Positions 1-14,730 of a stretch of DNA of 14,730 nt are shown here, piece by piece. The notes below the pieces were generated by a model. That model was not told the DNA's origin, did not search any database, and worked only from the letters and a program-made list of their open reading frames with translations. Each line of letters opens with the position of its first letter. The stretch's first letter is position 1. The stretch comes from an uncultured Muribaculaceae bacterium (GTDB taxonomy: Bacteria > Bacillota_I > Bacilli_A > RF39 > UBA660), in contig CAZPLK010000013.1 of assembly GCA_964587565.1 (NCBI GenBank), positions 1 through 14,730 of the forward strand, written 5' to 3'. A program made the position numbers and the translations under genes.

Positions 1-41
1 TTGTTTTAACTTTACCAAATTACACACCTCCATTTGCTCTA

Positions 42-71
42 ATTATACAAAAAAACGTAAAAAAATGTCAA
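42..71 (-). promoter_or_regulatory. Sigma-A-like promoter (TTGACA-18 nt-TATAAT) for a gene that starts near the left edge and runs out of the window
   Basis: On the minus strand, TTGACA is the reverse complement of 66-71 and TATAAT of 42-47, with an 18-nt spacer. A GGAGGTG RBS (reverse complement of 25-31) follows, with a possible TTG start at 16-18. AT-rich genomes give chance promoter matches. Confidence 0.35.
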
Positions 72-100
72 TCCTTTTATGGTAGCTTTACACTTTAATA

Positions 101-124
101 CACAAAAAAAGAGGATAACCTCTT
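101..124 (-). terminator. Rho-independent terminator of hisS
   Basis: Minus-strand hairpin AAGAGG-UUAU-CCUCUU (109-114 pairs with 119-124) overlaps the hisS TAA stop and is followed by a U-run (complement of the A-run at 104-110). Confidence 0.6.
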
Positions 125-1475
125 ATTTTATGTTTATAATTTCTTCATTTTTTAATAATAATTCATTTTTAATTACTTTGATAGCTTCATCAACACTTAA
201 TAAGTTTTGCTCGCCACTATTCATATTTCTTAGTGTAATCTTATCTTTCTTAAGCTCTTCATCTCCTAAAAAAACTACAAATAATATGTTATTTCTATTC
301 GCATAACTAATTTTATTTTTCAATTTTTTTTCTTCAAAGTATATTTGTGTTTTAATATTTTTGGTTCTAAATTTAGTTGATGTATTGATAGCCCACGAAA
401 TATCATTAATCATTGGAATTATCAGGACATCAGCTGGCGAATCATTAATATCATTTATATAATCCATTTCATGTAAAATAGAAAATAATCTTGTTAATCC
501 TATAGAGATACCTACTCCTGGTAATTTTTTACTTGTATAATGTTCAGCCAAATCATCATAACGGCCACCAGAACATATACTTCCAATTTCTGGATGTTTG
601 TTAAATGTAGTTTCATATACCGTCCCTGTATAATAATCTAAACCTCTTGCAATTGTTAAATCAATCATATAATTTTCATCCGGTACACCAAAGTTAGCAA
701 TATAATTATATACAACTTTAAGTTCTTCAACTCCTTTTATAAAAGTATCAGTTTTGTTATCAAATTTTAATAACTCATTTATTATTTTTTCACCATCACC
801 TTTTATTTCTAAAAATTTTATTATTTTCTCACAAGATTCATTAGAAAGTTTCAAATCGTGTAATTCTTTTATAAAATTACTTGTGCCAATTTTTTCCCTC
901 TTATCAATTATTCTAATAACCTCTGTTTTTTTATCATTGATATTTATCATTTCAAAAAAACCATTTAATATTTTTCGGTTATTTATTCTTATTGTAAAGT
1001 CAGAAAGTCCTAAATTTTTAAATACATTATAAATAATGCTTGGGATTTCTGCATCATTAACAACATTTAACTCTCCATCTCCAATTATATCAATATCTGC
1101 TTGATAAAACTCCCTATATCGTCCCTTTTGAGCGCGTTCACCTCTATAAACTTTGCCAATTTGATATCTTTTAAACGGAAATATAATATCATTATAATTT
1201 TTGGCAACATATTTAGCCAATGGTACTGTTAAATCAAAACGCATTGTAATATCAGTGTTTCCTTTTAAAAACCTATAAATTTGTTGTTCAGTTTCACCGC
1301 CAGCTTTCGCCAATAACACTTCAGATTTTTCTAGTATAGGTGTATCCAAAGGGAAAAAACCAAATAATTCATAAGATTCTTTTAGTATTTGTTTCATAAT
1401 ATTAAATTTTATTTGATCTTCTGGTAGTAATTCCATAAAACCAGATAAGGTTGTTGGTTTAACTTTTTTATTCAT
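123..1475 (-). CDS. hisS: Histidine--tRNA ligase (class II aaRS)
   Basis: 450-aa ORF with HisRS-type class II motifs: FKRYQIGKVYRGERAQKGRYREFYQADIDIIG, SGGRYDDL and PGVGISIGLTRL. It has a C-terminal anticodon-binding-like domain and an AGGAG RBS 8 nt upstream of the ATG. Confidence 0.92.
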   Translation of the reverse strand: MNKKVKPTTLSGFMELLPEDQIKFNIMKQILKESYELFGFFPLDTPILEKSEVLLAKAGGETEQQIYRFLKGNTDITMRFDLTVPLAKYVAKNYNDIIFPFKRYQIGKVYRGERAQKGRYREFYQADIDIIGDGELNVVNDAEIPSIIYNVFKNLGLSDFTIRINNRKILNGFFEMININDKKTEVIRIIDKREKIGTSNFIKELHDLKLSNESCEKIIKFLEIKGDGEKIINELLKFDNKTDTFIKGVEELKVVYNYIANFGVPDENYMIDLTIARGLDYYTGTVYETTFNKHPEIGSICSGGRYDDLAEHYTSKKLPGVGISIGLTRLFSILHEMDYINDINDSPADVLIIPMINDISWAINTSTKFRTKNIKTQIYFEEKKLKNKISYANRNNILFVVFLGDEELKKDKITLRNMNSGEQNLLSVDEAIKVIKNELLLKNEEIINIK

Positions 1476-1600
1476 AAATTCATCTCCTTTTATTATTATA
1501 ACATTTTAGTAAAATCAATGGAGATAATTAGAATTAAAGTATTTACTACATAACACAACAATCACTATAATTCCTCCTTTAATACAAAATTATTTTATCA

Positions 1601-2026
1601 CTATAACTTATTACTGTCAATTTTTTCAAACGTAAATAAATAAAGATTTAAAACAATATAAATAATATTAAAATAAATTATATTATTCGCAACATATTTC
1701 ATTCTATAATTATTGTAGTTATTTACATCATCAATAAACATAACGTTTGAAATAATTTTCGTATCTAGAAGCCCCCTTAGTAAAATTGTTGTAATAATTA
1801 TATTAGATAAAATAAATATTATATTATATTTATTATTATAATTTATATATTGTAAATCCTTTACGTATAAAATTGCCATAATTATTAGCGTTATTGATAA
1901 CAAAATATAAAAAAGGGGAACATTAACATTTTCCATTTTAGGCAAACCTAGTTTAGTACAAAGTAATAATAAAATAAAATTAATAAAAAAACTAATGTTT
2001 TTTAAATAATAAATTTTTTTAGCCAA
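1601..2026 (-). CDS. Hypothetical polytopic membrane protein (about 4 predicted TM segments)
   Basis: 141-aa ORF with several 18-22-residue hydrophobic stretches (FINFILLLLCTKLG, LFYILLSITLIIMAILYV, IIFILSNIIITTILL, IIYFNIIYIVLNLYLFTF). Its start overlaps the upstream ORF's stop by 8 nt. I recognise no family. Confidence 0.5.
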   Translation of the reverse strand: MAKKIYYLKNISFFINFILLLLCTKLGLPKMENVNVPLFYILLSITLIIMAILYVKDLQYINYNNKYNIIFILSNIIITTILLRGLLDTKIISNVMFIDDVNNYNNYRMKYVANNIIYFNIIYIVLNLYLFTFEKIDSNKL

Positions 2027-2654
2027 CTAATTCACCACTTTCTAAAGTCAGTTCTGACAAATATTCAATCACTTTAACTTTGGCAAACAAGTTATTTAAT
2101 AACAAATTAATTTGTGTACCATTTTTTAAGCTTTCAAAATTATTAAATTTATACTCATAATTGTTGATTATAGGCTCAACAATAAAACTTGTCGCTAATA
2201 TTAGTTGAACATTATAATTTATAAAATTCTCCAAATTTAATCCTTTATTATTACTAGATAAAATCCTATAAATTTCTATTGATTCTAAGACATTAATTTT
2301 TGAACAGTCTTTTGCAAATTCATAAAATTGGTTTACATTCATAACATCATTATTACTGCTATAATTCCACATTTTTAATGATTCAATTAATTTTATTTGG
2401 TGAAGTAAATTATTTTTTATTATACTTAACTCTTTCTCTGATAAATAACTATCATTTATTTTATCTATTTTCTCAATGTTTGTTTTAATATTTTTAGATG
2501 TTTCCTGAATTTTTTCTATTTCATTACTATTCTCAAAATTATAATAAAATTTTTCACAATTTATTATAACAAAATGTTTGAAATTACATATTACTAAAAA
2601 ACCTAACACACTAATTAATATAAATATAAGAATATTTTGAAAGTGTTTTTTCAT
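2019..2654 (-). CDS. Hypothetical N-terminally anchored protein with an Asn/Ile/Glu-rich, probably helical ectodomain
   Basis: 211-aa ORF with one N-terminal TM or signal anchor (ILIFILISVLGFLVICNF) and no recognisable catalytic motif. It overlaps the 141-aa ORF by 8 nt, which suggests translational coupling. Confidence 0.5.
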   Translation of the reverse strand: MKKHFQNILIFILISVLGFLVICNFKHFVIINCEKFYYNFENSNEIEKIQETSKNIKTNIEKIDKINDSYLSEKELSIIKNNLLHQIKLIESLKMWNYSSNNDVMNVNQFYEFAKDCSKINVLESIEIYRILSSNNKGLNLENFINYNVQLILATSFIVEPIINNYEYKFNNFESLKNGTQINLLLNNLFAKVKVIEYLSELTLESGELVG

Positions 2655-2697
2655 GCTATCACCTTTTTAATTATATCACAAAAAAAGATAATTATCG

Positions 2698-3786
2698 CTA
2701 ATTATCTTCTACACTTTTATTAAGTTTTACCTTTGTATCCCCAATTTTTCCATCTCGATAAAATTTAATATTTATTTCTTCGCCAACTTCATATTTATAT
2801 AATACAAACCTAAAATGGCCTATACCAGTAATTTTAACGTTATTAATTTCCAGTATAACGTCACCCTTTTTTAATCCAGCGGCTTCAGCAGCTGACTTTT
2901 TTTGAACATTAATAATAGCTATTCCAGATTCAAAAGGCTCGTCATACTGCAATCCATTACGATATAATGCATACGTTTCAGTTGCATCAATTATTTCAAC
3001 ACCTAATAGTGGACGCTTTATCTCTTCGCCTTTTTCTAATCTATCAACTGCACTCATTGCTATTTCAATAGGTATAGCAAAGCCCATACCTTCGATTTCG
3101 TCTTTTACTAATTTTAATGAATTTACGCCTACCACTTCACCATTTATATTTACAAGAGGACCACCACTATTGCCTGGATTAATAGCAGCATCTGTTTGTA
3201 AAACATCCATCATAAAATTACCATTGGGTAGTGTTACAGTAACTGTTCGATCTTTTCCAGATAATATTCCTTTCGTAACAGTACCAATATATTCTGAACC
3301 TAGTGGAGATCCAACCGTAAATAGTGTATCCCCTAAATTTAATTTTGTACTATCACCAATTTTAACAACTTTTAATACTTCTTCTTTATCTATTGCTAAA
3401 ACCGCAATATCGGCATAAGAATCACTTCCTAATAATTTAGCTTCACTCTCTATGCCGTTAATACTTAAAATTTTGATTTTATTTGATTTTTCAATAACAT
3501 GATGATTAGTTATAATATAACCATTTTTATTATCCTTTTTATATACAAACCCTGTTCCTGTTCCGATTAACCTGTTATCTTTATATGCTTCCACTAATAC
3601 AACCCCATCGTACACTTTTGCAATTGCTGGTTGAATTGTGTCTTGTTCTTTAATCTCAACATCATTAATAGTTTTTATTACACTTTCTCCTTTAAAAGGC
3701 ATATTATAAACAACAACATACGTGCCAGTCGCACCTACAAAAAAAGATAAAATTATTATTGATATATAAGTTATTCTTTCACGCAT
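2698..3786 (-). CDS. htrA: HtrA/DegP-family serine protease with a C-terminal PDZ domain
   Basis: 362 aa with an N-terminal TM anchor. The trypsin-like triad context is present (ITNHHVI His, DIAVL Asp, GNSGGPLVN Ser), along with a PDZ-like GLKKGDVILEINNVKI. RBS GGGGTGAT upstream. Confidence 0.9.
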   Translation of the reverse strand: MRERITYISIIILSFFVGATGTYVVVYNMPFKGESVIKTINDVEIKEQDTIQPAIAKVYDGVVLVEAYKDNRLIGTGTGFVYKKDNKNGYIITNHHVIEKSNKIKILSINGIESEAKLLGSDSYADIAVLAIDKEEVLKVVKIGDSTKLNLGDTLFTVGSPLGSEYIGTVTKGILSGKDRTVTVTLPNGNFMMDVLQTDAAINPGNSGGPLVNINGEVVGVNSLKLVKDEIEGMGFAIPIEIAMSAVDRLEKGEEIKRPLLGVEIIDATETYALYRNGLQYDEPFESGIAIINVQKKSAAEAAGLKKGDVILEINNVKITGIGHFRFVLYKYEVGEEINIKFYRDGKIGDTKVKLNKSVEDN

Positions 3787-3799
3787 CTTATCACCCCTA

Positions 3800-4732
3800 T
3801 TATAAATTTATAATTTCCCGCCAATTATCAGGAAATCCGATTTTATTTAATATTGTGTTTAATGGTACTGTTTTGACTTTACCTTCTAAAATATTAATTT
3901 CATAACCAATTTCATATATAAACTCCCTAAACTCATCATCAGTAAGCATTTGTTTCATAATTATAACCAGAGCATATAAATCATTTTTCCCAAAATTATA
4001 TTCATCATTTGTCATATCTATATTTAATAAATAATGATATTTTGTATCTGGAATTCTTCTTTGAGTTCTATGATCATAAAGTATATCTTCGTGAGCACAT
4101 AAATTTCTATAATTAGCAAGCATTGATAAATATACTGTTAAATTTTCAGGCTCCAAATCATACGTATTAGAAAGTTCAATTTGATCTTCTGGTTTTAATA
4201 TATTAAATAATTCAGCAACTATTCCAAATGATAATACTTTCACTAGTATCCACATTGGTATATAACCATAATTACTTAAATAATGCATTGTCGCAGTATG
4301 TTGTTTACCATTTACCCTTATTTGCCTTTTCATTTTATTTAAAACGTCATTAACTTGTTTAGTTTTGTAACTGTCTTGATTAAAGTTTTTAGGGTCCAAA
4401 TATTTCTTTTCTTTAAAACCATATTTTCTAGATAACGTATAACTAATTTTTGATTTAATGTTGTTTTCAACAATTAAAATATATTTAAACATAATATTTC
4501 TAATTTTCCTATCGAAAACAAAAGTTGCATATAATTCCTCAAATGTCGTACCAGGAAAAAATCTCCTATCCCTATGAGAACGCATAAACAAGTGACGATA
4601 TCCACTTATAAAAAAATAATTTTCTCTATATAAAATATCTTTAGCTTTTTCAGGAAAATCAATAACTAAACCTTTATTTCTTAATATTTCAATTTGTTCA
4701 TCTAATGTCCGAAATATTTTACTGCCCATCAT
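3800..4732 (-). CDS. Abi_2-family protein (AbiD/AbiD1/AbiF-like abortive-infection domain)
   Basis: 310 aa. The N-terminus (F-TLDEQIEILRNKGLVI...AKDILYRENYFFISGYRHLF) and the overall length and helical pattern match my memory of the Abi_2 (PF07751) family. RBS AGGTGAT upstream. Confidence 0.7.
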   Translation of the reverse strand: MMGSKIFRTLDEQIEILRNKGLVIDFPEKAKDILYRENYFFISGYRHLFMRSHRDRRFFPGTTFEELYATFVFDRKIRNIMFKYILIVENNIKSKISYTLSRKYGFKEKKYLDPKNFNQDSYKTKQVNDVLNKMKRQIRVNGKQHTATMHYLSNYGYIPMWILVKVLSFGIVAELFNILKPEDQIELSNTYDLEPENLTVYLSMLANYRNLCAHEDILYDHRTQRRIPDTKYHYLLNIDMTNDEYNFGKNDLYALVIIMKQMLTDDEFREFIYEIGYEINILEGKVKTVPLNTILNKIGFPDNWREIINL

Positions 4733-4765
4733 ATCACCTATTATTTATTATAACATATTTTTTTA

Positions 4766-6985
4766 TTATTGACCTTTTATTTTATATTTCATTTTTTTTA
4801 ATCTTAATGCATTAAAAACGACACTTAAACTACTAATGGTCATAGCTAAACCTGCTAACAGTGGATTTAATACAATCCCTATTGGTCTTAAAAAGCCAAT
4901 AGCAATTGGTATCATAGCAACATTGTAAATAAAAGCCCAAAATAAGTTTTGTTTTATATTTTTAATAGTGTTTCTACTAATCTCCAAAACACTTATTATT
5001 TTACTTAAATCATCATTTAATAAAATAATATCTGCTGAATCATTAGCAATATCAGTTCCACTACTAACACTGACTCCTATATTTGCAATCGTCAAAGCTG
5101 GAGCATCGTTTATACCGTCACCAATCATCATTACAACTTGGTTTTTATTTTTCAATTTAATTATAACGTTTGACTTTTCTTTTGGCAATACATTAGCAAA
5201 TACCTTTTCTATACCTATTTCATTTGCAACTAAATTCGCTGTTTTTTCGTTATCACCAGTTAACATAATTGTTTTTATATTAAGTGATTTTAAATCCACG
5301 ATAATTCCTTTTACATTTTCTCTTAATACATCCTTAACACCAATTATACCTAAAACTTCCTTATCTTTCACAACATATACAATGCTGTTTCCAGCAGAAG
5401 TGAGTTTATATTCTATATCACTGTACTTATTTAAAATTTCGTATTTTTTCAAAAGTGCTCTGTTACCAATATATATTGTTTCATTATTTATCTTTCCTTT
5501 AAGACCATATCCGGGCAAGTTTATAAAATTAGTAACATTTTTAAGTTTTATATTTTTTTCTTTTGCATATTTAACAATTGCTAATGCGATAGGATGTGTC
5601 GAATGACGTTCAACACTAGCTACTATACTAATTAATTTATTATCACTAATATTACTAAAATTATATATTTCGGATATTGTCAAATTTCCTTTAGTTAATG
5701 TACCTGTTTTATCAAAAACAATCGTATTAACTTTATGTGCATTTTCTAATACTTCACTCGATTTAATTAATATACCATTATTAGCACAAAGTCCTTCAGC
5801 AATAACAATCGCTAATGGTGTCGCTAATCCTAATGCACACGGACAAGATATTACTAAAATACTTACAAAAACATTTAGTGCAACACTAAAATGATAACCA
5901 AGTAACAAATATATTGCGAAAGTAATTAATGAAATGGCCATAACTATAGGTACAAAATAACTACTTATTTTATCAACAAATAATGCAATTGGGGGTTTAG
6001 TATTTGCAGCCTCTATAACTAAACGTACTATTTCAGAAATAGTAGATTCTTTACCAATTTTTTCTGCCTTATATTCTATATATCCAGAATAATTAATACT
6101 GCCTGCTATAACTTTTGATCCTTTTTCTTTTTTAACTGGAATACTTTCACCTGTAATAAAAGTTTCATCTAAATGCGACATTCCAAAAACTACCTCACCA
6201 TCAACTGCTATTTTATCACCGGGCTTTGCCACTAAAATATCCCCTTGTTTCACTTCATCAATTGTAACCTTTTTAGTTTTATTTCCTTTTTTTATTATCG
6301 CCATTTGAGGTGTTATTTGAACCAGTTTTTCAATAGCTTCTTTAGTTTTATTTTTACTATTTTTATCTATAAAACGCCCTAATTTAATAAAAAATAAAAT
6401 CATAATAGCTGATTCAAAATATAAATTGTGTGCATAACTTACATCTCCCATAAAAATTTTAATTGTACCAAAAATACTATAAAGAAAGCTACTTACAACA
6501 CCAATACTCACTAATGTATCCATGTTTGGATTTTTATTTAACAAACTTTTAAAACCGTTTTTTAATATATCTAATCCGTAAAACAAAACTGGTAATGATA
6601 AAATTAATAGTAATACAGCATATGACCTAGGGGAAATTTTAGGATCCATAATCAAAAACAAAGGTTTTTTAATCATCGCTATCATCGAAATATACATAAC
6701 AAAAAAAGATATGATTCCATAAAAAATAATTTTAACTGTTTCTCTCTTTGATGTTTTGACGTTATCAATAGGATTATATTCACCTAAACTAATATATCCA
6801 GCTTTTTTAACAAAACTTTCAATATTATTGATTGTCAATGAATCATCGTATTCTATTAGTGCTGTCGCCATTATTAAATTCACATTTACTTTAACAATAC
6901 CTTTTTGCTTTTTTAAGTATTTTTCAAGACTATTAGAACAAGCACTACAACTCATACCTTCTATTTTTAATATAATTTTATTCAT
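4766..6985 (-). CDS. copA: Copper-translocating P1B-type ATPase
   Basis: 739 aa with an N-terminal HMA domain (GMSCSACS), a TGES actuator motif, the CPC transmembrane metal site (SCPCALGLATP), the DKTGTLT phosphorylation site and the GDGINDAPAL hinge. Confidence 0.93.
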   Translation of the reverse strand: MNKIILKIEGMSCSACSNSLEKYLKKQKGIVKVNVNLIMATALIEYDDSLTINNIESFVKKAGYISLGEYNPIDNVKTSKRETVKIIFYGIISFFVMYISMIAMIKKPLFLIMDPKISPRSYAVLLLILSLPVLFYGLDILKNGFKSLLNKNPNMDTLVSIGVVSSFLYSIFGTIKIFMGDVSYAHNLYFESAIMILFFIKLGRFIDKNSKNKTKEAIEKLVQITPQMAIIKKGNKTKKVTIDEVKQGDILVAKPGDKIAVDGEVVFGMSHLDETFITGESIPVKKEKGSKVIAGSINYSGYIEYKAEKIGKESTISEIVRLVIEAANTKPPIALFVDKISSYFVPIVMAISLITFAIYLLLGYHFSVALNVFVSILVISCPCALGLATPLAIVIAEGLCANNGILIKSSEVLENAHKVNTIVFDKTGTLTKGNLTISEIYNFSNISDNKLISIVASVERHSTHPIALAIVKYAKEKNIKLKNVTNFINLPGYGLKGKINNETIYIGNRALLKKYEILNKYSDIEYKLTSAGNSIVYVVKDKEVLGIIGVKDVLRENVKGIIVDLKSLNIKTIMLTGDNEKTANLVANEIGIEKVFANVLPKEKSNVIIKLKNKNQVVMMIGDGINDAPALTIANIGVSVSSGTDIANDSADIILLNDDLSKIISVLEISRNTIKNIKQNLFWAFIYNVAMIPIAIGFLRPIGIVLNPLLAGLAMTISSLSVVFNALRLKKMKYKIKGQ

Positions 6986-7035
6986 ATAATTATCACCACT
7001 TAATATATTTTAAACTTAAAATATCTCCATAATAA

Positions 7036-7064
7036 AATATACACTTTTTGAATTTTTATGTCAA
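7036..7064 (-). promoter_or_regulatory. Sigma-A-like promoter upstream of copA (TTGACA-17 nt-TATATT)
   Basis: On the minus strand, TTGACA is the reverse complement of 7059-7064 and TATATT of 7036-7041, with an exact 17-nt spacer. It lies in the 94-bp cwlD-copA gap. I saw no CopY box (TACAnnTGTA) or CsoR-type operator. Confidence 0.4.
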
Positions 7065-7079
7065 ATATAAAAACGGATT

Positions 7080-7742
7080 TCAATTTTGAAAATACTTAAC
7101 AATCCCTCCTGCAATAACATTACTTACTTTTTGTTGATAATATTTTTTTCTTAATAAATATCTTTCGTTTGGATTACTTATAAAGCCAACCTCTATTAAA
7201 ACACCTGGCCGTTTAACACGTTTATGAAGATACATCTCTGCAGTCTTCTTATACTTTCTTTTGGTATTCAAGTGTTTTGCTAACTCAGATTGTATAATTC
7301 GTGCAATTTTTTCATTTGATTCATGCACATCATCATAAAAAACTTGCGCACCATACCAAACAGGAGAAGAGTCGGAATTTAAATGAATAGAAATATATAA
7401 ATCACACCCTGACCGATTTATTATATTTCCTCTTCTGGATAAATCACTTCTTTTCCTGTTTATAGCGTTTATAACACTTAAATCATAATCACCATACCTT
7501 GTCATATATACAATAGCACCCATATTGCCTAAAGTATCACTCAAAGTTTCACTTATTTCCAAATTAATATTTGATTCATATATATCTTTATATACTGCCC
7601 CTGGATCAGCACCTCCATGACCTGGGTCAATGTATATGACTTTGCCTAATAACGGGTACTCTTTTTCTTTTGCTTCAATATAATTAAAAAACAGCAATGA
7701 AATTACAAATAATGAGGTGCACATTATTTTATATTTGAACAT
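7080..7742 (-). CDS. cwlD: N-acetylmuramoyl-L-alanine amidase (Amidase_3), CwlD-like
   Basis: 220 aa with an N-terminal signal anchor. Amidase_3 motifs are present (IDPGHGGADPGA, YISIHLNS, LIEVGFISN). Its position just downstream of rplM-rpsI matches the Bacillus cwlD neighbourhood. Confidence 0.75.
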   Translation of the reverse strand: MFKYKIMCTSLFVISLLFFNYIEAKEKEYPLLGKVIYIDPGHGGADPGAVYKDIYESNINLEISETLSDTLGNMGAIVYMTRYGDYDLSVINAINRKRSDLSRRGNIINRSGCDLYISIHLNSDSSPVWYGAQVFYDDVHESNEKIARIIQSELAKHLNTKRKYKKTAEMYLHKRVKRPGVLIEVGFISNPNERYLLRKKYYQQKVSNVIAGGIVKYFQN

Positions 7743-7782
7743 TTTATCACCTAATTAATTATATTCATCTAAATTTTTAATA

Positions 7783-7811
7783 TAAAAAAAACCTACATAT
7801 GTAGATTTTTT
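7783..7811 (-). terminator. Weak bidirectional-looking rho-independent terminator after rpsI
   Basis: A palindrome (cctacatatgtag within 7792-7805) is flanked by an A8 run at 7784-7791 and a T-run at 7806-7811. On the minus strand the hairpin is followed by U8. The stem is short and AT-rich. Confidence 0.45.
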
Positions 7812-7833
7812 AAACAATTTAATGTTAAATCAA

Positions 7834-8253
7834 TTAACGTTTTGAATATTGTGGTGCACGACGTGCTGCTTTTAATCCAGGTTTTTTACGTTCTTTAATA
7901 CGTGAATCCCTTGTAATAAATCCAGCTCTTTTTAAAATTTGTCTAAAACTATCTTCATTGTTAGGGTCGTTATTAACATCATACTCTAAAAGTGCACGAG
8001 TTATTCCTAAACGAATCGCTCCAGTTTGACCATTAAAGCCGCCTCCATTTACTTTAACATCTATATCAAACATGTTTTCAGTGTTTGTAGCAACTAAAGG
8101 TTGTTTTAAATCCATAACATTTGTTTCATATGGAAAAAACTCTTTAACATCAATTCCATTAACTGTTATTTTACCTTTACCAGGAATCATCTTAACTTGT
8201 GCGATTGAAGATTTTCTTCTTCCTGTTCCAATATAAATTTTATTTTTAGTCAT
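7834..8253 (-). CDS. rpsI: 30S ribosomal protein S9
   Basis: 139 aa. The N-terminus has [27 protein letters not shown] and the C-terminus has [17 protein letters not shown], both typical of uS9. AGGAGG RBS. Confidence 0.95.
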
Positions 8254-8266
8254 TTAAAACCCTCCT

Positions 8267-8701
8267 TTAATTAATTTTTAACTCAACTGGTTGCTGAGCT
8301 GTATGAGGGTGTTCATTACCTTCATACACAAATAACTTTCTATACATTTGCCTACCTAATCTCCCTTTAGGAAGCATACCTTTAATTGATCTTTCTACCA
8401 TTTCAACTGGATATCTATCTTTCATTTCGCGTGCTGTTCTTTTCCTTAAACCACCTGGATAACCACTGTGATTATAATAAACTTTTTGGTCTAATTTATT
8501 ACCAGTTAAATTTATTTTAGATGCATTAATTATAATAACATAGTCACCACCATCAACATGTGGTGTAAAAGTTACCTTATTTTTCCCACGAAGTATGTGT
8601 GCAGCTTGGGTTGCGAGACGTCCTAAGATGACATCTTCTGCATCAATTACATACCAGTTACGTTTAACATCTTCTTTTCTTTGCATATATGTTGTTTTCA
8701 T
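8267..8701 (-). CDS. rplM: 50S ribosomal protein L13
   Basis: 144 aa. [46 protein letters not shown]...[10 protein letters not shown] is canonical uL13. Confidence 0.95.
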
Positions 8702-8812
8702 ATAACTTTCCTTTCTTATCTCATACTAATATAAGTAGTCCCAATACTTATAATAGTGGGATATATAAAATGTACCAACTAAAATTTTACTAAATTTCAT
8801 AACAATTGTCAA
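8702..8812 (-). promoter_or_regulatory. rplM promoter (TTGACA-17 nt-TAAAAT) plus an approximately 75-nt 5' leader with a hairpin; possible L13 autoregulatory leader
   Basis: On the minus strand, TTGACA is the reverse complement of 8807-8812 and TAAAAT of 8784-8789, with a 17-nt spacer. The leader contains the stem UCCCA...UGGGA (8739-8743 pairs with 8757-8761). A ribosomal-protein L13 leader is described in low-GC Gram-positives, but I cannot match a covariance model by eye. Confidence 0.35.
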
Positions 8813-8840
8813 CATTATCATATGTTTTTTTGTTTTATTT

Positions 8841-9581
8841 TTAATAAAATACATCTTTTAAATATAAACCTTCGGGATTAGCTGTTTTACCAGCATTTTT
8901 TCGTTCTAGCGATTTTAAAATGGTTATTATATCTTCACTTTTTCTTTTACCTTCGCCTATTTCAATTAATGTACCAACCATGTTACGAACCATATATCTC
9001 AAAAAACCCGTACCAACAAAGGAAATTGTAATTTTATTAACATTTTTAACATCTCTTATTAAATTTGTTTGAACAATAATCCTAACAAAATCTTCTTTCT
9101 CGTCATCAACTTTTGAAAAAGCTTTGAAATCGTGTTCTCCTTCCAAATACTTTAAAGCCCTTTCCATTTCTACAACATCTAATCTTTTATTATATTGATA
9201 TACATAATTCTTTTCAATTGGATCATATTCACCCATATTAATTTTATATATATACTCCTTTGCTTTAGCATCAAATCTTGCATGAAAATTGTCATTAACC
9301 TCCATAACACTTTTTATATAAATATCATCTGGGATCAAACTATTTAATGCCTTTTTTAATTTTTCTGGTGTTATATCCATTTCCAAATCAAAATGGGCTT
9401 TTTGATTTATTGCGTGAACTAACGCATCAGTTCTTCCACTAGCATGGATTGAAACTGCTTTACTATCATTAATGATTTTTAATGCTTTTTCGATTTCACC
9501 TTGAATAGTTTTAACCCTCGCTTGTTTTTGATAACCCTTATATTTAGAACCATCATATGAAAACGTTATAAAGTATCTCAT
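8841..9581 (-). CDS. truA: tRNA pseudouridine(38-40) synthase
   Basis: 246 aa. The catalytic-Asp motif GRTDALVHA is present with a TruA-like fold pattern. It sits in the canonical ecfT-truA-rplM position and overlaps the ecfT stop by 4 nt. Confidence 0.9.
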   Translation of the reverse strand: MRYFITFSYDGSKYKGYQKQARVKTIQGEIEKALKIINDSKAVSIHASGRTDALVHAINQKAHFDLEMDITPEKLKKALNSLIPDDIYIKSVMEVNDNFHARFDAKAKEYIYKINMGEYDPIEKNYVYQYNKRLDVVEMERALKYLEGEHDFKAFSKVDDEKEDFVRIIVQTNLIRDVKNVNKITISFVGTGFLRYMVRNMVGTLIEIGEGKRKSEDIITILKSLERKNAGKTANPEGLYLKDVFY

Positions 9582-10333
9582 AATATTACCTCTCTAACTA
9601 CTAATAGTACTAAAATAATTGAATGAATAAGTACCATATATGTATCAAAAAAGCGCCAGTTATTCATTCTAAAATTAGTTCTTTTTTTATTTATATTATA
9701 TAATCTTAATTCCATTGATACTGCTAACTCGTCTGCCCTTTTAAAAGAATACACTAACATTGGTAAAACTAATGATCTTATTCCAATTAACTTATCTTTA
9801 ACTTTTGAATTAGTATAATCTATTCCACGGCAAGTTTGTGCTTTTATTATTTTATTTGCCTGATCTATAATTGTTGGAATAAATCTTATCGCTAAACTTA
9901 AGGTTAGTGCCATTTTATTAACTGGTATTCCAATTAAGCGTAATGGTGTAAAAAACTGTTCCAAACCATAAGTTAATTCAGTAGGTGGGGTTGTTAAAGT
10001 TAGTACAGACGAATAAATAACTACCAAAACTAACCTAGATACCATAATAATACTTACGGTTACACTTACTTTTAGTATAGCATTAATCATTATTATAAAG
10101 ATTATTATTATTTTCAAACTTTTAATTGCTTTAATATATATTTTCAAAGGAATATTAGTCATTAACGTAATTAAAATTACAAATATAGTTATTAAACATA
10201 CAAAAAATAAACTATTATTTAAAAACATTAATAATGTAAATATGAATGTGCATATTATTTTGGATAATGGATTCATACAATGTATTTTAGAAGTTATTGG
10301 ATAATATCGCCCTATCATCACGTTATTTAGCAT
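9578..10333 (-). CDS. ecfT: ECF transporter transmembrane (T) component, CbiQ family
   Basis: 251-aa polytopic membrane protein directly downstream of two ECF-type ATPases, with a conserved Arg-containing helical region near the C-terminus (RADELAVSMELR). Confidence 0.85.
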   Translation of the reverse strand: MLNNVMIGRYYPITSKIHCMNPLSKIICTFIFTLLMFLNNSLFFVCLITIFVILITLMTNIPLKIYIKAIKSLKIIIIFIIMINAILKVSVTVSIIMVSRLVLVVIYSSVLTLTTPPTELTYGLEQFFTPLRLIGIPVNKMALTLSLAIRFIPTIIDQANKIIKAQTCRGIDYTNSKVKDKLIGIRSLVLPMLVYSFKRADELAVSMELRLYNINKKRTNFRMNNWRFFDTYMVLIHSIILVLLVVREVIL

Positions 10334-11174
10334 ATCTATATATGTCCTTAATTAAATCATTTATTTCATCACGATATCCCATTTTAATATTTTTTTCTTT
10401 CAACACTTTATTTGAAAATTCCATTATTTTAGGAACCCCTATGCCATGTTTTTGTAACAGTTCATAATTACTAAACACATCATATTTATTACCTTCTAAA
10501 ATTATTGTTTTATTACTTAATACAAATATTTGATCTGATATCTTATGTAAAAAATCAACATCTTGTGATACTATTATTATTGTTTTATTATAATTATTGC
10601 GAAGCATCTTTATCAATCTAATTAAATTGTTTTTACTATTACTATCCAATCCAACTGTAGGCTCATCAAAAATTATAACTTTAGGATTAAACACTAAAAT
10701 TGATGCAATGGCAACTTTTCTTTTTTCACCATTACTTAATGTCAATGGGTTTCTTTTTAAATAACTTTCATCTAAGCCTACCATTTTTAAAGAGTTCTGA
10801 ACCCTTTCATCAATATTTTCCACTTTATAATTAAAAGTTTTTAGTGCAAATTCTATTTCTTTTTTTACTGTTGAATTAAAAAATTGATCTTCAGGAAACT
10901 CAAATATAAAACCAATATTAAATCTTAATAAATAAATATTTTTAATTTTCTGCTTTTTATCAATATAACAGTTATCTACTTTAATTCTTCCCTCTGTTGG
11001 TATTATTAATGACATTATCATCTCTATTAAACTAGTTTTTCCACTTCCACTTTTACCAATAATAGCGTTTACTTTATTTTTATGTATTTTAAAATTAATA
11101 TTGTTTAAAATTTCTTTTTCTAATGGGGTATCTTTATTGTATGTTAATCCAACATTTTCGATCACTATCTCCAT
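10323..11174 (-). CDS. ecfA2: ECF transporter ATPase component A2
   Basis: 283 aa with Walker A GKSGSGKTS, signature LSNGEKRKV and Walker B IIFDEPT. It is the second ATPase in the ecfA1-ecfA2-ecfT order. Confidence 0.88.
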   Translation of the reverse strand: MEIVIENVGLTYNKDTPLEKEILNNINFKIHKNKVNAIIGKSGSGKTSLIEMIMSLIIPTEGRIKVDNCYIDKKQKIKNIYLLRFNIGFIFEFPEDQFFNSTVKKEIEFALKTFNYKVENIDERVQNSLKMVGLDESYLKRNPLTLSNGEKRKVAIASILVFNPKVIIFDEPTVGLDSNSKNNLIRLIKMLRNNYNKTIIIVSQDVDFLHKISDQIFVLSNKTIILEGNKYDVFSNYELLQKHGIGVPKIMEFSNKVLKEKNIKMGYRDEINDLIKDIYRYAK

Positions 11175-11971
11175 AATTTTTCCACCATCTCATCCATATC
11201 AAAAACAAATTCTTCTACTAACCCATAATACATTAATTTAAGTGATAGCTCAGCCATAAAAGGAATATCTATTCCTATGGAATTAAAAATTTTATCTTCT
11301 TTAAAAACTAATTCTTTACTGCCATTTAAAACAATTTTACCAGAATCAATAAGAATTACATCATCTCCGTAAATAGATTCTTCAATATCGTGAGTTATAT
11401 TAATTATTGTTATTCCTTTTTCTTCTTTAAGTTTTAATAATATATTTAAAATGTTTTCCCTGTCTAAATAATCAATTCTATTAATGGCTTCATCCAGTAT
11501 AAGTATTTTAGGTTCTAATACTAATACACTAGCTAAGGCAACTAATTGTCTCTGACCACCACTTAGAGAAAAAGGATTTTTTTCTAATAAGTTTGTTATA
11601 TTTAAATAATTACTAACTTCTAACACTTTTTTTCTTATATATTCCTTATCCTTTTCTAAATTTTCAAGTGCAAAGGCCATCTCATCCATTACCGTTTCAG
11701 CAACAAATGTGCTATCGGGATGTTCAAAAATAACACCAACAAATTGCCTGATTTTTTTAACGTTGTCTTTTGTAAGAATAACATCATTTATAAAAATTTT
11801 ACCATCTGCCTCTAAAAGGCCAACAATTATCTTAATAAGTGTACTCTTACCACTACCATTTGGACCGATTATAGTTGTCCAAGCACCTTTTTTTATGTTT
11901 AAATTAAATTTATCAAAAATTTTATTATCATTGTATTTAAATGATAAGTCTTGAATCTTTAATATATCCAT
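11165..11971 (-). CDS. ecfA1: ECF transporter ATPase component A1
   Basis: Walker A GPNGSGKST, signature LSGGQRQLV and Walker B LILDEA. The ORF track starts at 11983 (MEVAM...). The ATG at 11971 (MDILKIQ...) has a GGAGG RBS 5 nt upstream and the 11983 ATG has none, so I prefer 11971. Confidence 0.85.
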   Translation of the reverse strand: MDILKIQDLSFKYNDNKIFDKFNLNIKKGAWTTIIGPNGSGKSTLIKIIVGLLEADGKIFINDVILTKDNVKKIRQFVGVIFEHPDSTFVAETVMDEMAFALENLEKDKEYIRKKVLEVSNYLNITNLLEKNPFSLSGGQRQLVALASVLVLEPKILILDEAINRIDYLDRENILNILLKLKEEKGITIINITHDIEESIYGDDVILIDSGKIVLNGSKELVFKEDKIFNSIGIDIPFMAELSLKLMYYGLVEEFVFDMDEMVEKLWR

Positions 11972-11991
11972 GGCAACCTCCATTGGACATT

Positions 11992-12020
11992 ATTATAATA
12001 TAAAAAAAATAATTTGACAA
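11992..12020 (-). promoter_or_regulatory. Sigma-A-like promoter for the ecf-truA cluster (TTGTCA-17 nt-TATAAT)
   Basis: On the minus strand, TTGTCA is the reverse complement of 12015-12020 and TATAAT of 11992-11997, with a 17-nt spacer. It lies in the 67-nt gap between the RT stop and the ecfA1 start. Confidence 0.4.
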
Positions 12021-12038
12021 CTTTTGAAATTTACAATA

Positions 12039-13226
12039 TTATTTTAAAACGACTTTAAAGTACCATTTAGATACTTTAAAATAATTCCAAAAATTTACAT
12101 GTAATATATTAATTAATTTACTACGCAAATAGTAAGTATTAAAATGTAATAAAAGTCCTAAATAAGAATTCAATATTGCTTGAATCTTTTTAACGTCTTT
12201 TTCGCATAAATTTTGTTCTAACAATGTGTTAACATAGGCAATCGCACAGTAAAAATTATTTTTAACTCTCGGTGTAATATACCTCCTCCATGGTTTTATG
12301 TAAGCCCCTAAAAATTCAACGCCATGAGTAATATTTTGTAAATATATTTTATTAGGATGAAGTTCAAGTTGTAAATTATTTTTAAGAAATTCTTGTATTT
12401 TGGGTATGCAATCTTTTAATTCTTCTCTTGAGGTAGATAATAAAAAAAAGTCATCAACATATCTACCATAAAATTTTATTTTTAATTTACTTTTAACAAA
12501 ATGGTCCAAAGAATTTAAATAGAAATTAGAAAAAATTTGACTAGTATAGTTGCCAATAGGAAGTCCACAATTTTCATTAGTATGAAAAAGACTTTTAGAT
12601 TTGGGAAGACCATCCCATTTACTATAAGAACATTTAATTGTGCAATTGTTAGTGGCATCATTTAAAATTATTAATTGGCATAACCAAATTAATTTCTCTT
12701 TATCATTATAAATATATTTTAGTTTTAAAAAGTTTTCTAGTTTTTCTAATAATATAAGTTTATTTATACTCATAAAATAACTTTTAATATCTAATTTCAA
12801 AACATAAGCATCGCGATTATAATTATGAGTAATTTTTCTAATAAATTTGTTTAACCGATTAATTCCAAATAAGGTTCCCTTACCCTTTCTACAACTATAA
12901 GAATCATAAATAAATTCACGTTCAAACATCTTTTCTAATTTCATTACAATTAAATGATGAATAACCCTATCCCTAAAAGACGAGGCACAAATTTCCCGTT
13001 TAACAGGCTTTTCAACTATAAAAAAAGAAGTAGGACTTATTTTATAATCCCCACTTTTTACTTCTTCCCATAACTCTATTAAATTTTCCTCATAGTCAAT
13101 ATCAAATTCTAGACAGTCAAGTTTACTCTTTTTATTTTTACGACATTGATAATATGCCTTAAAAAAGTCTTCTAAGCAAATATCATTAAGTTCTTCAGTT
13201 AATACAAAATCATTTAATCTGCTCAT
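12039..13226 (-). CDS. DGR-type reverse transcriptase
   Basis: 395 aa from the ATG at 13226, which is preceded by an AAGGAG RBS. RT motifs are present: KREICASSFRDRVIHH, YVLKLDIKSYFMSI, the DGR-diagnostic motif 4 LPIGNYTSQ (IGxxxSQ), YGRYVDDFF (YxDD) and HGVEFLGAYI. There is no endonuclease or maturase extension. It lies immediately 3' of the TR. Confidence 0.93.
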   Translation of the reverse strand: MSRLNDFVLTEELNDICLEDFFKAYYQCRKNKKSKLDCLEFDIDYEENLIELWEEVKSGDYKISPTSFFIVEKPVKREICASSFRDRVIHHLIVMKLEKMFEREFIYDSYSCRKGKGTLFGINRLNKFIRKITHNYNRDAYVLKLDIKSYFMSINKLILLEKLENFLKLKYIYNDKEKLIWLCQLIILNDATNNCTIKCSYSKWDGLPKSKSLFHTNENCGLPIGNYTSQIFSNFYLNSLDHFVKSKLKIKFYGRYVDDFFLLSTSREELKDCIPKIQEFLKNNLQLELHPNKIYLQNITHGVEFLGAYIKPWRRYITPRVKNNFYCAIAYVNTLLEQNLCEKDVKKIQAILNSYLGLLLHFNTYYLRSKLINILHVNFWNYFKVSKWYFKVVLK

Positions 13227-13252
13227 ATAATAATCTCCTTTAATTGTAATAA

Positions 13253-13435
13253 GTCCCAAAACGCAACGAACCGAGCGACCGTTACTCTGACTGTTGTCGT
13301 TGCGATTAACACCATCATTAGAAGAGTTCATGTTACGTCTCCAAGCATTCGAACCTGAGAGAGAAGACGTCCACCAATTACCGTTAGACCCAACATTGTT
13401 GATCGTACCAGAGGTGTTACGGTTACCAGCAGGCA
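13253..13435 (-). repeat. DGR template repeat (TR)
   Basis: 183 bp, collinear with 14505-14687 at a constant offset of 1252 with no indels. 165 of 183 positions are identical. All 18 mismatches are T on the plus strand here, which is A on the coding (minus) strand. Its conceptual translation is Asn-rich, with 14 AAY codons. Confidence 0.95.
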
Positions 13436-13594
13436 ATCAAATAGTAAAATGACTCCTAAAAGCGTTTAAAGTGACTACTGTACTCGTCCGCATATTCTCG
13501 TGAATACCGACATATAAATCCCAAAAAATCGGGGAGTCACCGGACTTAATAGGCACACTCCTAAACAGCAGTACCATTTAGAACTCCGGCCAAG
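13436..13594 (-). ncRNA. GC-enriched noncoding segment between the avd stop and the TR; candidate structured 5' portion of the DGR template RNA
   Basis: 159 nt with no ORF. My hand count gives about 42% GC (65 of 154 nt counted), against about 25% in the neighbouring avd and RT genes. It is contiguous with the TR on the same strand. The function is inferred only. Confidence 0.35.
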
Positions 13595-13954
13595 TCAATT
13601 TTTTAAAAATTTTTCCCACCCTATAAGTTGCCTTCTAACATTTTCCATTTTTACACTTACTTCAACATGTTCATCTATACTTATTTGATGAAGATCATGT
13701 AACAATCGAAACAACAATCTAATCACTTCTATATTTTCAATAGCAGCCTCAACTTTATTTAATTTTAAATTTTTCTCCCTTATCTTATTTGCTCGATATA
13801 CATTCATTAGCAAATCAGTCATTTCATTTTTAATTTTTTCACCTAAAGTATACTTATATTCACGGGATAAATTCTTTATTAATTTAAAACTATCAAGTAA
13901 CAATTCATAGCTTACCTTATAAACAGGAAGTTCAATAGCCTTTGATTTACTCAT
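13595..13954 (-). CDS. avd: Avd-type DGR accessory protein (four-helix-bundle, 23S rRNA-IVS protein family)
   Basis: 119 aa, all-helical and basic. The pattern LPVYK.SYEL...L.K.LSREYKYTLGEKI......L...YRAN...........IE.IE.IRLLFRLLHDL..IS......V......V.RQL.GW.K is typical of Avd/TIGR02436-like proteins. It sits immediately upstream of the TR. The start overlaps the upstream ORF's stop (ATGAGTAA). Confidence 0.82.
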   Translation of the reverse strand: MSKSKAIELPVYKVSYELLLDSFKLIKNLSREYKYTLGEKIKNEMTDLLMNVYRANKIREKNLKLNKVEAAIENIEVIRLLFRLLHDLHQISIDEHVEVSVKMENVRRQLIGWEKFLKN

Positions 13955-14300
13955 TATCCATCAATATTTTTCTATAATAATTTAGTTTATCCAAAGCTTC
14001 TTCAGCAGTTATGTCTTTACTTGCCTTTATATCTTCTATTACATAATCAACAGTACTTAAAACAATTTCATAATCATATTCCAATAACTCAATAAATTTT
14101 ATATAAGTATCTATTTTTTCTGATGGAAAACCACATTTGTTTGTTAATTTAGAAAATTTTGTCAACTTTAAACCTAATTCTTCAGACATAAGTTTAGCAT
14201 CTTCCCCTAAAAATATATAAAACTTACCCACTTTAAACAAATATAGTTTGTTCTTATCGTCTTTTTTCTTACTCAAATATTTTTTATATAACTTACTCAT
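13947..14300 (-). CDS. Small MutS-domain-I-like protein (mismatch-binding-domain homolog only); candidate DGR accessory factor
   Basis: 117 aa. LYKKYLSKKKDDKNKLYLFKVGKFYIFLGEDAKLMSEELGLKLTKFSKLTNKCGFPSEKIDTYIKFI aligns by eye with E. coli MutS residues about 13-80 ([46 protein letters not shown]....MAGIPYHAVENYLAKL). There are no connector, clamp or ATPase domains. AGGAG RBS. 8-nt overlap with avd. Confidence 0.7.
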   Translation of the reverse strand: MSKLYKKYLSKKKDDKNKLYLFKVGKFYIFLGEDAKLMSEELGLKLTKFSKLTNKCGFPSEKIDTYIKFIELLEYDYEIVLSTVDYVIEDIKASKDITAEEALDKLNYYRKILMDNE

Positions 14301-14334
14301 CTTTTCTCCTTATAACTTCTACAAATTTTAGTTT

Positions 14335-14380
14335 TTTTAAAAAATTCTGTTGTCACTAGCCTCAAAAGGCTAGTGACAAC
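14335..14380 (-). terminator. Strong rho-independent terminator downstream of the DGR target gene
   Basis: Perfect 13-bp stem (14349-14361 pairs with 14368-14380) with a 6-nt loop. On the minus strand it is followed by AGAAUUUUUUAAAAAAAC. Confidence 0.65.
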
Positions 14381-14438
14381 CTTTAAATTTGTTTATTAAC
14401 ACTTTTCATTGCATGGATTAAAAAAATTATTTACTAAG

Positions 14439-14458
14439 CCATGGCGTAAACGCCATGG
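14439..14458 (-). promoter_or_regulatory. GC-rich hairpin (8-bp stem, 4-nt loop) downstream of the VR
   Basis: CCATGGCG-TAAA-CGCCATGG is a perfect inverted repeat (14439-14446 pairs with 14451-14458) in an otherwise AT-rich spacer. Its role in DGR target recognition or transcript stability is inferred. Confidence 0.4.
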
Positions 14459-14474
14459 AAAGTGGAAGGGTGAA

Positions 14475-14497
14475 GCCTAAGTCCTTACGGACTTGGC
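14475..14497 (-). promoter_or_regulatory. Hairpin immediately 3' of the VR and target stop codon; candidate DGR target-recognition (cruciform) element
   Basis: In minus-strand sense the sequence is GCC-AAGUCC-GUAA-GGACUU-A-GGC: 6+3 bp with one bulge and a GNRA-type GUAA loop. It starts 2 nt after the TAA stop and 7 nt after the last VR base. No equivalent hairpin follows the TR. Confidence 0.5.
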
Positions 14498-14499
14498 GG

Positions 14500-14730
14500 T
14501 TAATGTCCCAAAACGCAACGAACCGAGCGACCGTAACTCTGACTGTAGTCGACGCGATGAACACCATCATTAGAAGAGAACATGAAACGCCTCCAAGCAT
14601 CCGAACCTGAGAGAGAAGACGTCCACCAATTACCGCCAGACCCAACATTGCCGATCGCACCAGAGGCGTTACGGTGACCAGCAGGCAGGGCACTAAACCC
14701 ATAATCATCTGTTCCACCCATAACTACTGC
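14500..14730 (-). CDS. DGR target protein, C-terminal fragment (C-type-lectin-fold variable domain, FISUMP/DUF1566-like); the 5' part lies outside the window
   Basis: The reading frame is open to the window edge (AVVMGGTDDYGFSALPAGHRNASGAIGNVGSGGNWWTSSLSGSDAWRRFMFSSNDGVHRVDYSQSYGRSVRCVLGH*). The GFSALPAG...G..WW(S/T)SS...AW......G........G.SVRCV pattern matches my memory of the Fibrobacter-succinogenes-major-paralogous/DUF1566 type of DGR variable domains. The VR occupies the extreme C-terminus. Confidence 0.85.
   Translation of the reverse strand, partial: AVVMGGTDDYGFSALPAGHRNASGAIGNVGSGGNWWTSSLSGSDAWRRFMFSSNDGVHRVDYSQSYGRSVRCVLGH
14505..14687 (-). repeat. DGR variable repeat (VR), inside the 3' end of the target gene
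   Basis: It is the 183-bp counterpart of TR 13253-13435. At the 18 mismatches the VR carries A, C or G on the plus strand where the TR has T. The 30 nt at the 3' end in coding sense (14505-14534) are identical to the TR and GC-rich, which resembles an IMH (initiation of mutagenic homing) element. Confidence 0.95.

Follow-up and report, generated by a model that had tools for sequence, protein, structure and literature searches.

What does the MutS domain that recognises mismatches do when it is encoded on its own inside a diversity-generating retroelement (DGR)? The question is raised by a 14,730-nt stretch of DNA from an assembly labelled as an uncultured Muribaculaceae bacterium (GCA_964587565.1, contig CAZPLK010000013.1, positions 1 to 14,730 of the forward strand; hereafter the window). 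In this window, a 117-aa open reading frame (ORF) at 13947..14300 on the minus strand lies within a DGR, directly upstream of avd. A prediction made earlier from the sequence alone (the original prediction) had taken the ORF for a stand-alone homolog of MutS domain I, translationally coupled to avd, that could recognise, protect or resolve the mismatches in the heteroduplex between complementary DNA (cDNA) and the variable repeat (VR), or shield them from host MutS and MutL. We found that the ORF is a genuine domain-I-only MutS homolog, that it belongs to the already published MutS-like (MSL) class of DGR accessory genes, and that its large subfamily has kept the mismatch-wedging Phe of MutS without exception and has lost the Glu that accompanies it. 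The predicted binding or shielding of heteroduplex mismatches by MSL is compatible with everything that we found.

The assignment of the ORF draws on the ORF list, Pfam, phmmer, AlphaFold2, Foldseek and a family alignment. The only domain that Pfam detected was MutS_I (PF01624; 49.5 bits, cut-off 20.6; E 5.9e-13), with residues 5-80 of the protein matching profile positions 4-81 of 113. The MutS models of NCBIfam aligned over their first ~80 positions only (3-83 and 5-83; 42 bits against a cut-off of 480), and the NCBIfam scan showed no dedicated model for MSL. None of the MutS domains II-V (connector, core/lever, clamp and ABC ATPase) was detected by Pfam, as the original prediction had held, and 117 aa leave no room for them. 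Among PDB sequences, phmmer matched Taq MutS (1ewq, E 0.0024). In that alignment, the MSL segment LFKVGKFYIFLGEDA lies over LFQVGDFYECFGEDA of Taq MutS, which places Phe27 at the wedge Phe and Ile29 at the Glu of the Phe-X-Glu motif, in agreement with the residues predicted to be kept and exchanged. The AlphaFold2 model, built from an alignment of 45 homologs, has a mean pLDDT (predicted local distance difference test score) of 94 and a pTM (predicted template modelling score) of 0.77. When the model was compared with the PDB by Foldseek, all 48 matches with E ≤ 1e-3 were domain I of MutS, MSH3 or MSH6, and the best superpositions had a root-mean-square deviation of 1.4-2.0 Å over about 83 residues. 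The core of the model comprises approximately residues 3-82, and the C-terminal helices 83-93 and 99-115 are outside the well-superposed part. Similarity to MutS domain I is strong at both the profile and the structural level, and confirms the protein as a domain-I-only homolog.

Compared with domain I of the canonical MutS1 proteins (Taq 1ewq/1nne and E. coli 1e3m), MSL has the same fold, the wedge Phe, and the G-x-F-Y, D-A and G-x-P motifs. It differs from them as follows: First, domains II-V are missing, and the Glu of Phe-X-Glu is replaced by Ile, Leu or Val across the family. Second, the loop before G-F-P is ~4 residues shorter, and a family-specific Lys-Cys stands ahead of G-F-P. Third, where domain I would end, MSL has two additional C-terminal helices. 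Functionally, with an incomplete Phe-X-Glu motif and no domains II-V, MSL does not qualify as a MutS.

The gene class has been published before, and the window finding is a re-discovery. Wu et al. 2018 defined MSL as one of two new classes of DGR accessory genes, present in 16 of 372 DGRs and encoding proteins of 112-283 aa with an isoelectric point (pI) of 7.2 ± 1.7; MSL always occurred with avd and never with HRDC, and defines Architecture D (PMC5758913). The classification was repeated later (PMC8632793), PF01624 was found to be statistically associated with DGRs (PMC10053308), and Macadangdang et al. described Msl in three Bacteroides DGRs, Bfr, Bth and Bun (bioRxiv 2024.11.15.621889). This is the class that the original prediction had named. 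With 117 aa, similarity to MutS, a pI of 7.67, a position within a DGR, an avd gene and no HRDC gene, the window protein is a member of it, as assigned by the class description and not by comparison with the 16 published sequences. It shares with Architecture D and the Bacteroides Msl the small, near-neutral, MutS-domain-I-like protein and the gene company, and differs from the published MSLs in nothing essential; the window member comes from a large subfamily in chromosomal DGRs of uncultured low-GC gut Bacillota. NCBI and Logan data contain an identical, unnamed protein (P0001). No functional test of MSL is reported in Wu et al. 2018, the later surveys, the Bacteroides study or the other literature that we searched, as the original prediction had supposed. 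Beyond the published statements, the present analysis shows how large the subfamily is and in which hosts it occurs, and adds a quantified linkage to DGRs, the universal loss of the Glu beside an invariant Phe, and natural MSL-Avd fusions.

The DGR of the window is complete and lies on the minus strand, as do all of its features given below, in the order VR, MSL, avd, template repeat (TR), reverse transcriptase (RT). The TR (13253..13435, 183 nt, 42 adenines) and the VR (14505..14687, 183 nt) are 90% identical. Since all 18 mismatches between them fall at TR adenines, the cassette carries the DGR signature, and the MSL gene sits in an active-looking element, as had been predicted. The RT (12039..13226, 395 aa; RVT_1, E 2e-21) contains IGNYTSQ, which conforms to the DGR-type I/LGxxxSQ motif. 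The avd gene (13595..13954, 119 aa, pI 9.4) matches bAvd (PF22296, E 5.8e-15) and, below the model cut-off of 80, the NCBIfam model DivGenRetAVD (E 1.5e-14, 54.2 bits). The VR is at the 3' end of the target gene (14500..14730, stop codon 14500-14502), which extends beyond the window, and a hairpin region follows it; the window thus holds the RT motif, Avd, repeats that differ only at adenines, the 3'-terminal VR and the hairpin expected of a DGR. The ORF list contained no further ORFs in the cassette, and HRDC is absent. The MSL gene is preceded by a ribosome-binding site, AAGGAG (14306..14311, 5 nt 5' of the MSL ATG, found by sequence inspection), and its stop codon TAA (13947-13949) and the avd ATG (13952-13954) lie in ATGAGTAA, where the two genes overlap by 8 nt, which bears out the predicted overlap.

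How general is the state of the Phe-X-Glu motif? A sequence search returned 46 MSL relatives, a profile search at least 1,472 clusters at 90% identity, and an exhaustive search of 50%-identity representatives 314 MSL-like proteins with E ≤ 1e-10; nearly all relatives are 115-150 aa long. In 195 aligned family members, Phe27 is present in 195/195 and Tyr or Phe at position 28 in 193/195, and Asp34 and Phe58 are likewise invariant, with K-C-G-F-P nearly so. Position 29, which corresponds to Glu38 of E. coli MutS, is Ile in 147 members, Leu in 32, Val in 10, Asn in 3, Tyr in 2 and Ser in 1, and is Glu in none. Because the Glu is missing from every member and Phe27 from no member, the loss is a fixed, selected feature of the subfamily rather than drift in a single sequence, and the hydrophobic replacement that had been noted for the window protein extends to nearly all of the aligned members.

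A genome scan of the GTDB species representatives with an alignment of 19 closer sequences gave 80 MSL loci. All 80 are from low-GC gut metagenome-assembled genomes labelled Bacilli, Clostridia, Mollicutes, Tenericutes or Erysipelotrichaceae, with a few labelled Muribaculaceae, which we suspect to be mis-binned contigs. Neither tblastn against 50,697 phage records nor a scan of IMG/VR found relatives in phages, and a plasmid search returned one weak, irrelevant Fusobacterium match only. The subfamily therefore looks chromosomal; more distant MSLs may occur in phages, given the stand-alone MutS-I-like phage proteins among the BFVD fold matches described below.

In MutS, the Phe stacks on the mispaired base and the Glu hydrogen-bonds that base and takes part in relaying the signal to the ATPase (PMC3848065). 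The E38Q mutation abolishes the discrimination between matched and mismatched DNA, and E38 mutants lose repair signalling (reviewed in PMC3848065). Crystals of E. coli MutS E38T, E38A and E38Q on a G.T mismatch (1wb9, 1wbb and 1wbd) were among the Foldseek matches of the MSL model, and since these mutants crystallise on the mismatch, mismatch binding is possible without the Glu. Like MSL, they keep the Phe wedge and lack the Glu; however, they are engineered full-length proteins, whereas MSL is natural and domain-only and its substitution is fixed. As MSL keeps the wedge, lacks the Glu and, being a lone domain, has nothing to signal to, its most plausible reading is that of a protein which binds mispaired or distorted duplex but is unable to license repair.

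The invariant Phe also bears on a different proposal, in which MSL acts as a decoy that engages MutS, MutL or the beta clamp by protein contacts and blocks mismatch repair without binding nucleic acid. The descent of MSL from MutS, and the limit that host MutS sets on retrohoming, would suit a decoy. Nevertheless, we consider it very unlikely: MutS dimerises and recruits MutL through its connector and ATPase domains and is not known to do so through domain I, the Phe wedge retained in 195/195 members points to base stacking, and no clamp-binding motif was evident at the MSL C-terminus by sequence inspection.

In most loci, MSL proved to be linked to the DGR genes. In the metagenome loci examined, MSL-avd-RT was found in 6/6, and among the 80 species-representative loci, 69 have both Avd and RT within 5 kb of MSL; homologs of the window ORF thus occur mostly inside DGRs. 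The 11 exceptions comprise two loci cut by contig ends, one with a truncated MSL, two with avd only, and the remainder, in which MSL lies beside unrelated genes such as SpoIVA, YhcG, Tpt1/KptA and rnc/smc; the exceptional loci may be remnants or trans-acting copies. Adjacent MSL and avd genes overlap by 1-20 nt at about 49 of 65 junctions, a count biased towards overlap by taking the ATG nearest the stop as the avd start. In locus L007 (1188-4747), a tandem MSL-avd-MSL-avd precedes one RT, and this duplication of the pair suggests that MSL and avd behave as one unit. The divergence of MSL correlates with those of Avd (r = 0.47) and RT (r = 0.46; Mantel p = 0.001). Adenine-biased repeat pairs were found in 28 of the 69 RT-containing loci by a simple scan with strict criteria, a figure that is supportive only, many loci being truncated upstream. 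Gene order follows the subfamily: relatives of the window have VR-MSL-avd-TR-RT and more distant members VR-TR-MSL-avd-RT. In seven loci (L014, L020, L021, L023, L024, L029 and L031), the TR lies about 200-400 nt upstream of MSL, and MSL and avd stand between TR and RT.

Two natural fusions join MSL to Avd in a single protein. In P0194 (237 aa), MutS_I spans residues 4-88 and bAvd residues 126-232, and P0188 (205 aa) has the same architecture; in both, a linker takes the place of the C-terminal helices of MSL. P0194 was found directly upstream of RT on 9 contigs from independent samples and is therefore not an assembly artefact. These fusions also bear on the possibility that MSL is a hitch-hiking fragment of a mutS gene without any role in the DGR. 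In about 9 of the 80 loci, MSL stands without Avd or RT in its vicinity, as a relic might. Against it stand the at least 1,472 clusters, which are alike in length and share invariant core residues, a confidently folded model, the conserved position beside avd, and the fusions themselves. A relic is barely credible, and we rejected it on conservation, family size and fusions.

One further locus, L060 (1252-1755 and 2039-3625), combines a TR/VR pair biased towards adenine (10 of 11 mismatches at A) with a 224-aa MSL that is extended at its C-terminus. No Avd or RT was detectable downstream of this MSL, where the next genes are a 124-aa ORF, a Tpt1/KptA RNA 2'-phosphotransferase and, farther away, an integrase. 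An insertion may have disrupted a DGR here, or the accessory set may be an unusual one.

The Avd fusions and the overlapping genes suggest that MSL is delivered with the RT-Avd complex. Combined with the state of the motif, this leads to the reading that we favour tentatively, at somewhat less than an even chance: MSL would be a mismatch cap that docks on Avd and protects the heteroduplex of cDNA and VR against the mismatch repair of the host. MSL would be produced together with Avd from the overlapping genes, and by riding on the Avd-RT complex would arrive with the adenine-mutagenised cDNA. It would then bind mispaired or kinked sites of the cDNA:VR heteroduplex, and the bound protein would stop host MutS and MutL from restoring the parental VR, which would give more diversified targets. 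The present analysis shows the fold, the state of the motif, the linkage of the genes and the fusions; that unfused members would contact Avd as well, and would bind nucleic acid with an anti-repair outcome, is inferred. The Avd of the Bordetella phage DGR is a pentamer, and multiple copies of MSL would be loaded if the Avd of the window oligomerises likewise. Host repair does act on DGRs: deletion of mutS raised VR mutagenesis 5-10 fold, in an all-or-nothing manner, in a Bacteroides DGR without Msl (bioRxiv 2024.11.15.621889), and reconstitutions of DGRs in E. coli remove mutS or add a dominant-negative MutL. The proposed outcome for MSL is the same as that of MutL E32K or mutS deletion in engineered DGRs and recombineering, namely that repair is kept off the heteroduplex and mutation increases. 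However, those measures act globally on host repair, whereas MSL would act locally and by a different, unproven mechanism.

The same fusions and overlapping genes place MSL at the RT complex and not at the chromosome, and can also be taken to mean that it acts earlier, during cDNA synthesis in the Avd-RT ribonucleoprotein. There, MSL would bind RNA:cDNA mispairs opposite template adenines, and would stabilise mispaired primer ends for extension by the RT or modulate infidelity at adenines or processivity. That a hydrophobic residue is conserved where MutS has the Glu could reflect another substrate, such as an RNA:DNA hybrid, and the position of MSL and avd between TR and RT in the more distant subfamily would fit as well. 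To our knowledge, however, no MutS domain I binds RNA:DNA hybrids. In addition, bRT-Avd of the Bordetella phage recapitulates adenine-mutagenised cDNA synthesis, according to Handa et al. 2018 (PMC6182149), and MSL is missing from most DGRs (PMC5758913). We consider a role in cDNA synthesis unlikely.

The surroundings of the VR raise one more alternative. Two stem-loops lie directly 3' of the VR (14475-14497 and 14439-14458, hence 14439..14497), in the hairpin region of the DGR target site. The first contains AAGTCC/GTAA/GGACTT inside a longer stem and the second is CCATGGCG/TTTA/CGCCATGG. On the minus strand of 14425-14505, their combined DNA fold has -16.8 kcal/mol (z = -5.9), and none of 200 shuffled sequences was as stable. 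In the Bordetella phage DGR, a target-site hairpin is needed for retrohoming, and the stem-loops of the window look similar to it. MSL could therefore be a structure-specific DNA binder for targeting, which would recognise the VR-adjacent hairpins or cruciform, a D-loop or the junction of annealed cDNA and aid cDNA integration. The strength of the two hairpins and the position of MSL directly after the target gene in the window agree with this, and the loss of the discriminating Glu fits general binding of distorted DNA better than binding of mismatches. On the other hand, no evidence links domain I to hairpin recognition, target hairpins also occur in DGRs without MSL, and the proximity of MSL to the VR is not conserved, because the gene order is VR-TR-MSL-avd-RT in other members. 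A targeting role is, in our judgement, quite unlikely.

Several points weigh against the Avd-docked cap itself. The searched literature holds no experimental work on any MSL, and most DGRs work without one (PMC5758913). Retrohoming of the Bordetella phage did not require host MutS (Wu et al., PMC5758913), and since MutS is dispensable there, MSL would be at most a modulator. The main weakness is the host: these uncultured low-GC Bacilli- or Mollicutes-like bacteria may lack mutS and mutL, in which case a shield against mismatch repair fails. An isolated domain I without clamp domains and without a dimer may bind DNA weakly. The Glu-to-hydrophobic result is limited to this Bacillota subfamily; MSL lacks a detectable Avd or RT in about 9/80 loci; and the co-divergence of MSL with the cassette (r = 0.47) is looser than that between Avd and RT (r = 0.90). 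The fuller form of the cap reading, in which MSL is a MutS domain I that has shed the Glu and the signalling domains, is tethered to Avd, and is loaded onto the cDNA by Avd-RT to blind MutS and MutL locally, is a proposal that we hold to be possible but rather doubtful.

Two issues in DGR biology are at stake, namely how the VR is replaced by mutagenised cDNA and how the heavily mismatched intermediate escapes mismatch repair, and both limit engineered DGR mutagenesis. The invariant Phe, the loss of the Glu and the Avd fusions make the function of MSL directly testable. Should MSL counteract repair locally or stabilise the heteroduplex, directed-evolution systems built on DGRs could include it without the host becoming a general mutator. 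Should it be an Avd-tethered cap, no natural diversity generator would, as far as we know, have yielded a dedicated anti-mismatch-repair factor before, and the cap would explain why MutS_I modules, stand-alone or repeated, occur in proteins of phages and in the giant polyvalent proteins with ArdC that belong to mobile elements.

Such modules were seen in two settings. First, BFVD contains fold matches to MSL in short proteins of uncultured siphoviruses or myoviruses, A0A8S5PPT8 (153 aa), A0A8S5PL02 (74 aa) and A0A8S5L9N2 (84 aa), with Foldseek E values of 5e-8 to 2e-4; because of these short MutS-domain-I-like phage proteins, domain-I-only proteins extend beyond the Bacillota DGR subfamily. 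Second, P0087 (2323 aa; L090 6968-13939) and P0189 (1756 aa) contain DUF285 repeats, 4-6 tandem MutS_I-like repeats and an ArdC-N anti-restriction domain, and P0087 adjoins another 2270-aa ORF and a DNA methylase. By eye, the Phe-X-Glu positions of their repeats read FYE, FYH, FYQ or variants without Phe. Both look like polyvalent proteins of a mobile element.

The remaining features of the window concern the target gene, the cassette RNA and the chromosomal surroundings. The truncated C-terminus of the target protein matched Fib_succ_major weakly (31 bits, below the cut-off of 33.9), and the relative L001 has a full-length counterpart with N_methyl and Fib_succ_major. A terminator scan found a strong terminator-like hairpin (14349..14380) that separates MSL from the target gene and consists of a 14-bp stem with a T run after it. 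The 158-nt spacer between avd and TR contains a structured-RNA candidate (13464..13590), a below-threshold match to Rfam RT-7 (E 1.3e-6; 37.5 bits, gathering score 116.8), and the same RT-7-like element lies 3' of avd in two relatives (L008 1275-1401 and L009 830-956). The MSL-type DGR of L028, which is more distant, instead has an above-threshold match to RT-14 RNA just upstream of MSL (2029-2162). The RT-7- and RT-14-like elements look like lineage-specific structured parts of the DGR RNA. The window as a whole is a chromosomal segment of 27% G+C, with genes including those for a tRNA synthetase, a ribosomal protein and an ECF transporter as well as truA. Both the window (3800-4732 and 2698-3786, minus strand) and L001 (8852-10354) have, at a distance of a few to several kb from the DGR, a gene of the Abi_2 family and next to it one for an HtrA-like protease, as called by Pfam matches in L001 and deduced from ORF translations in the window. 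The recurrence of this pair near the DGR in both loci suggests conserved chromosomal synteny rather than a mobile DGR.

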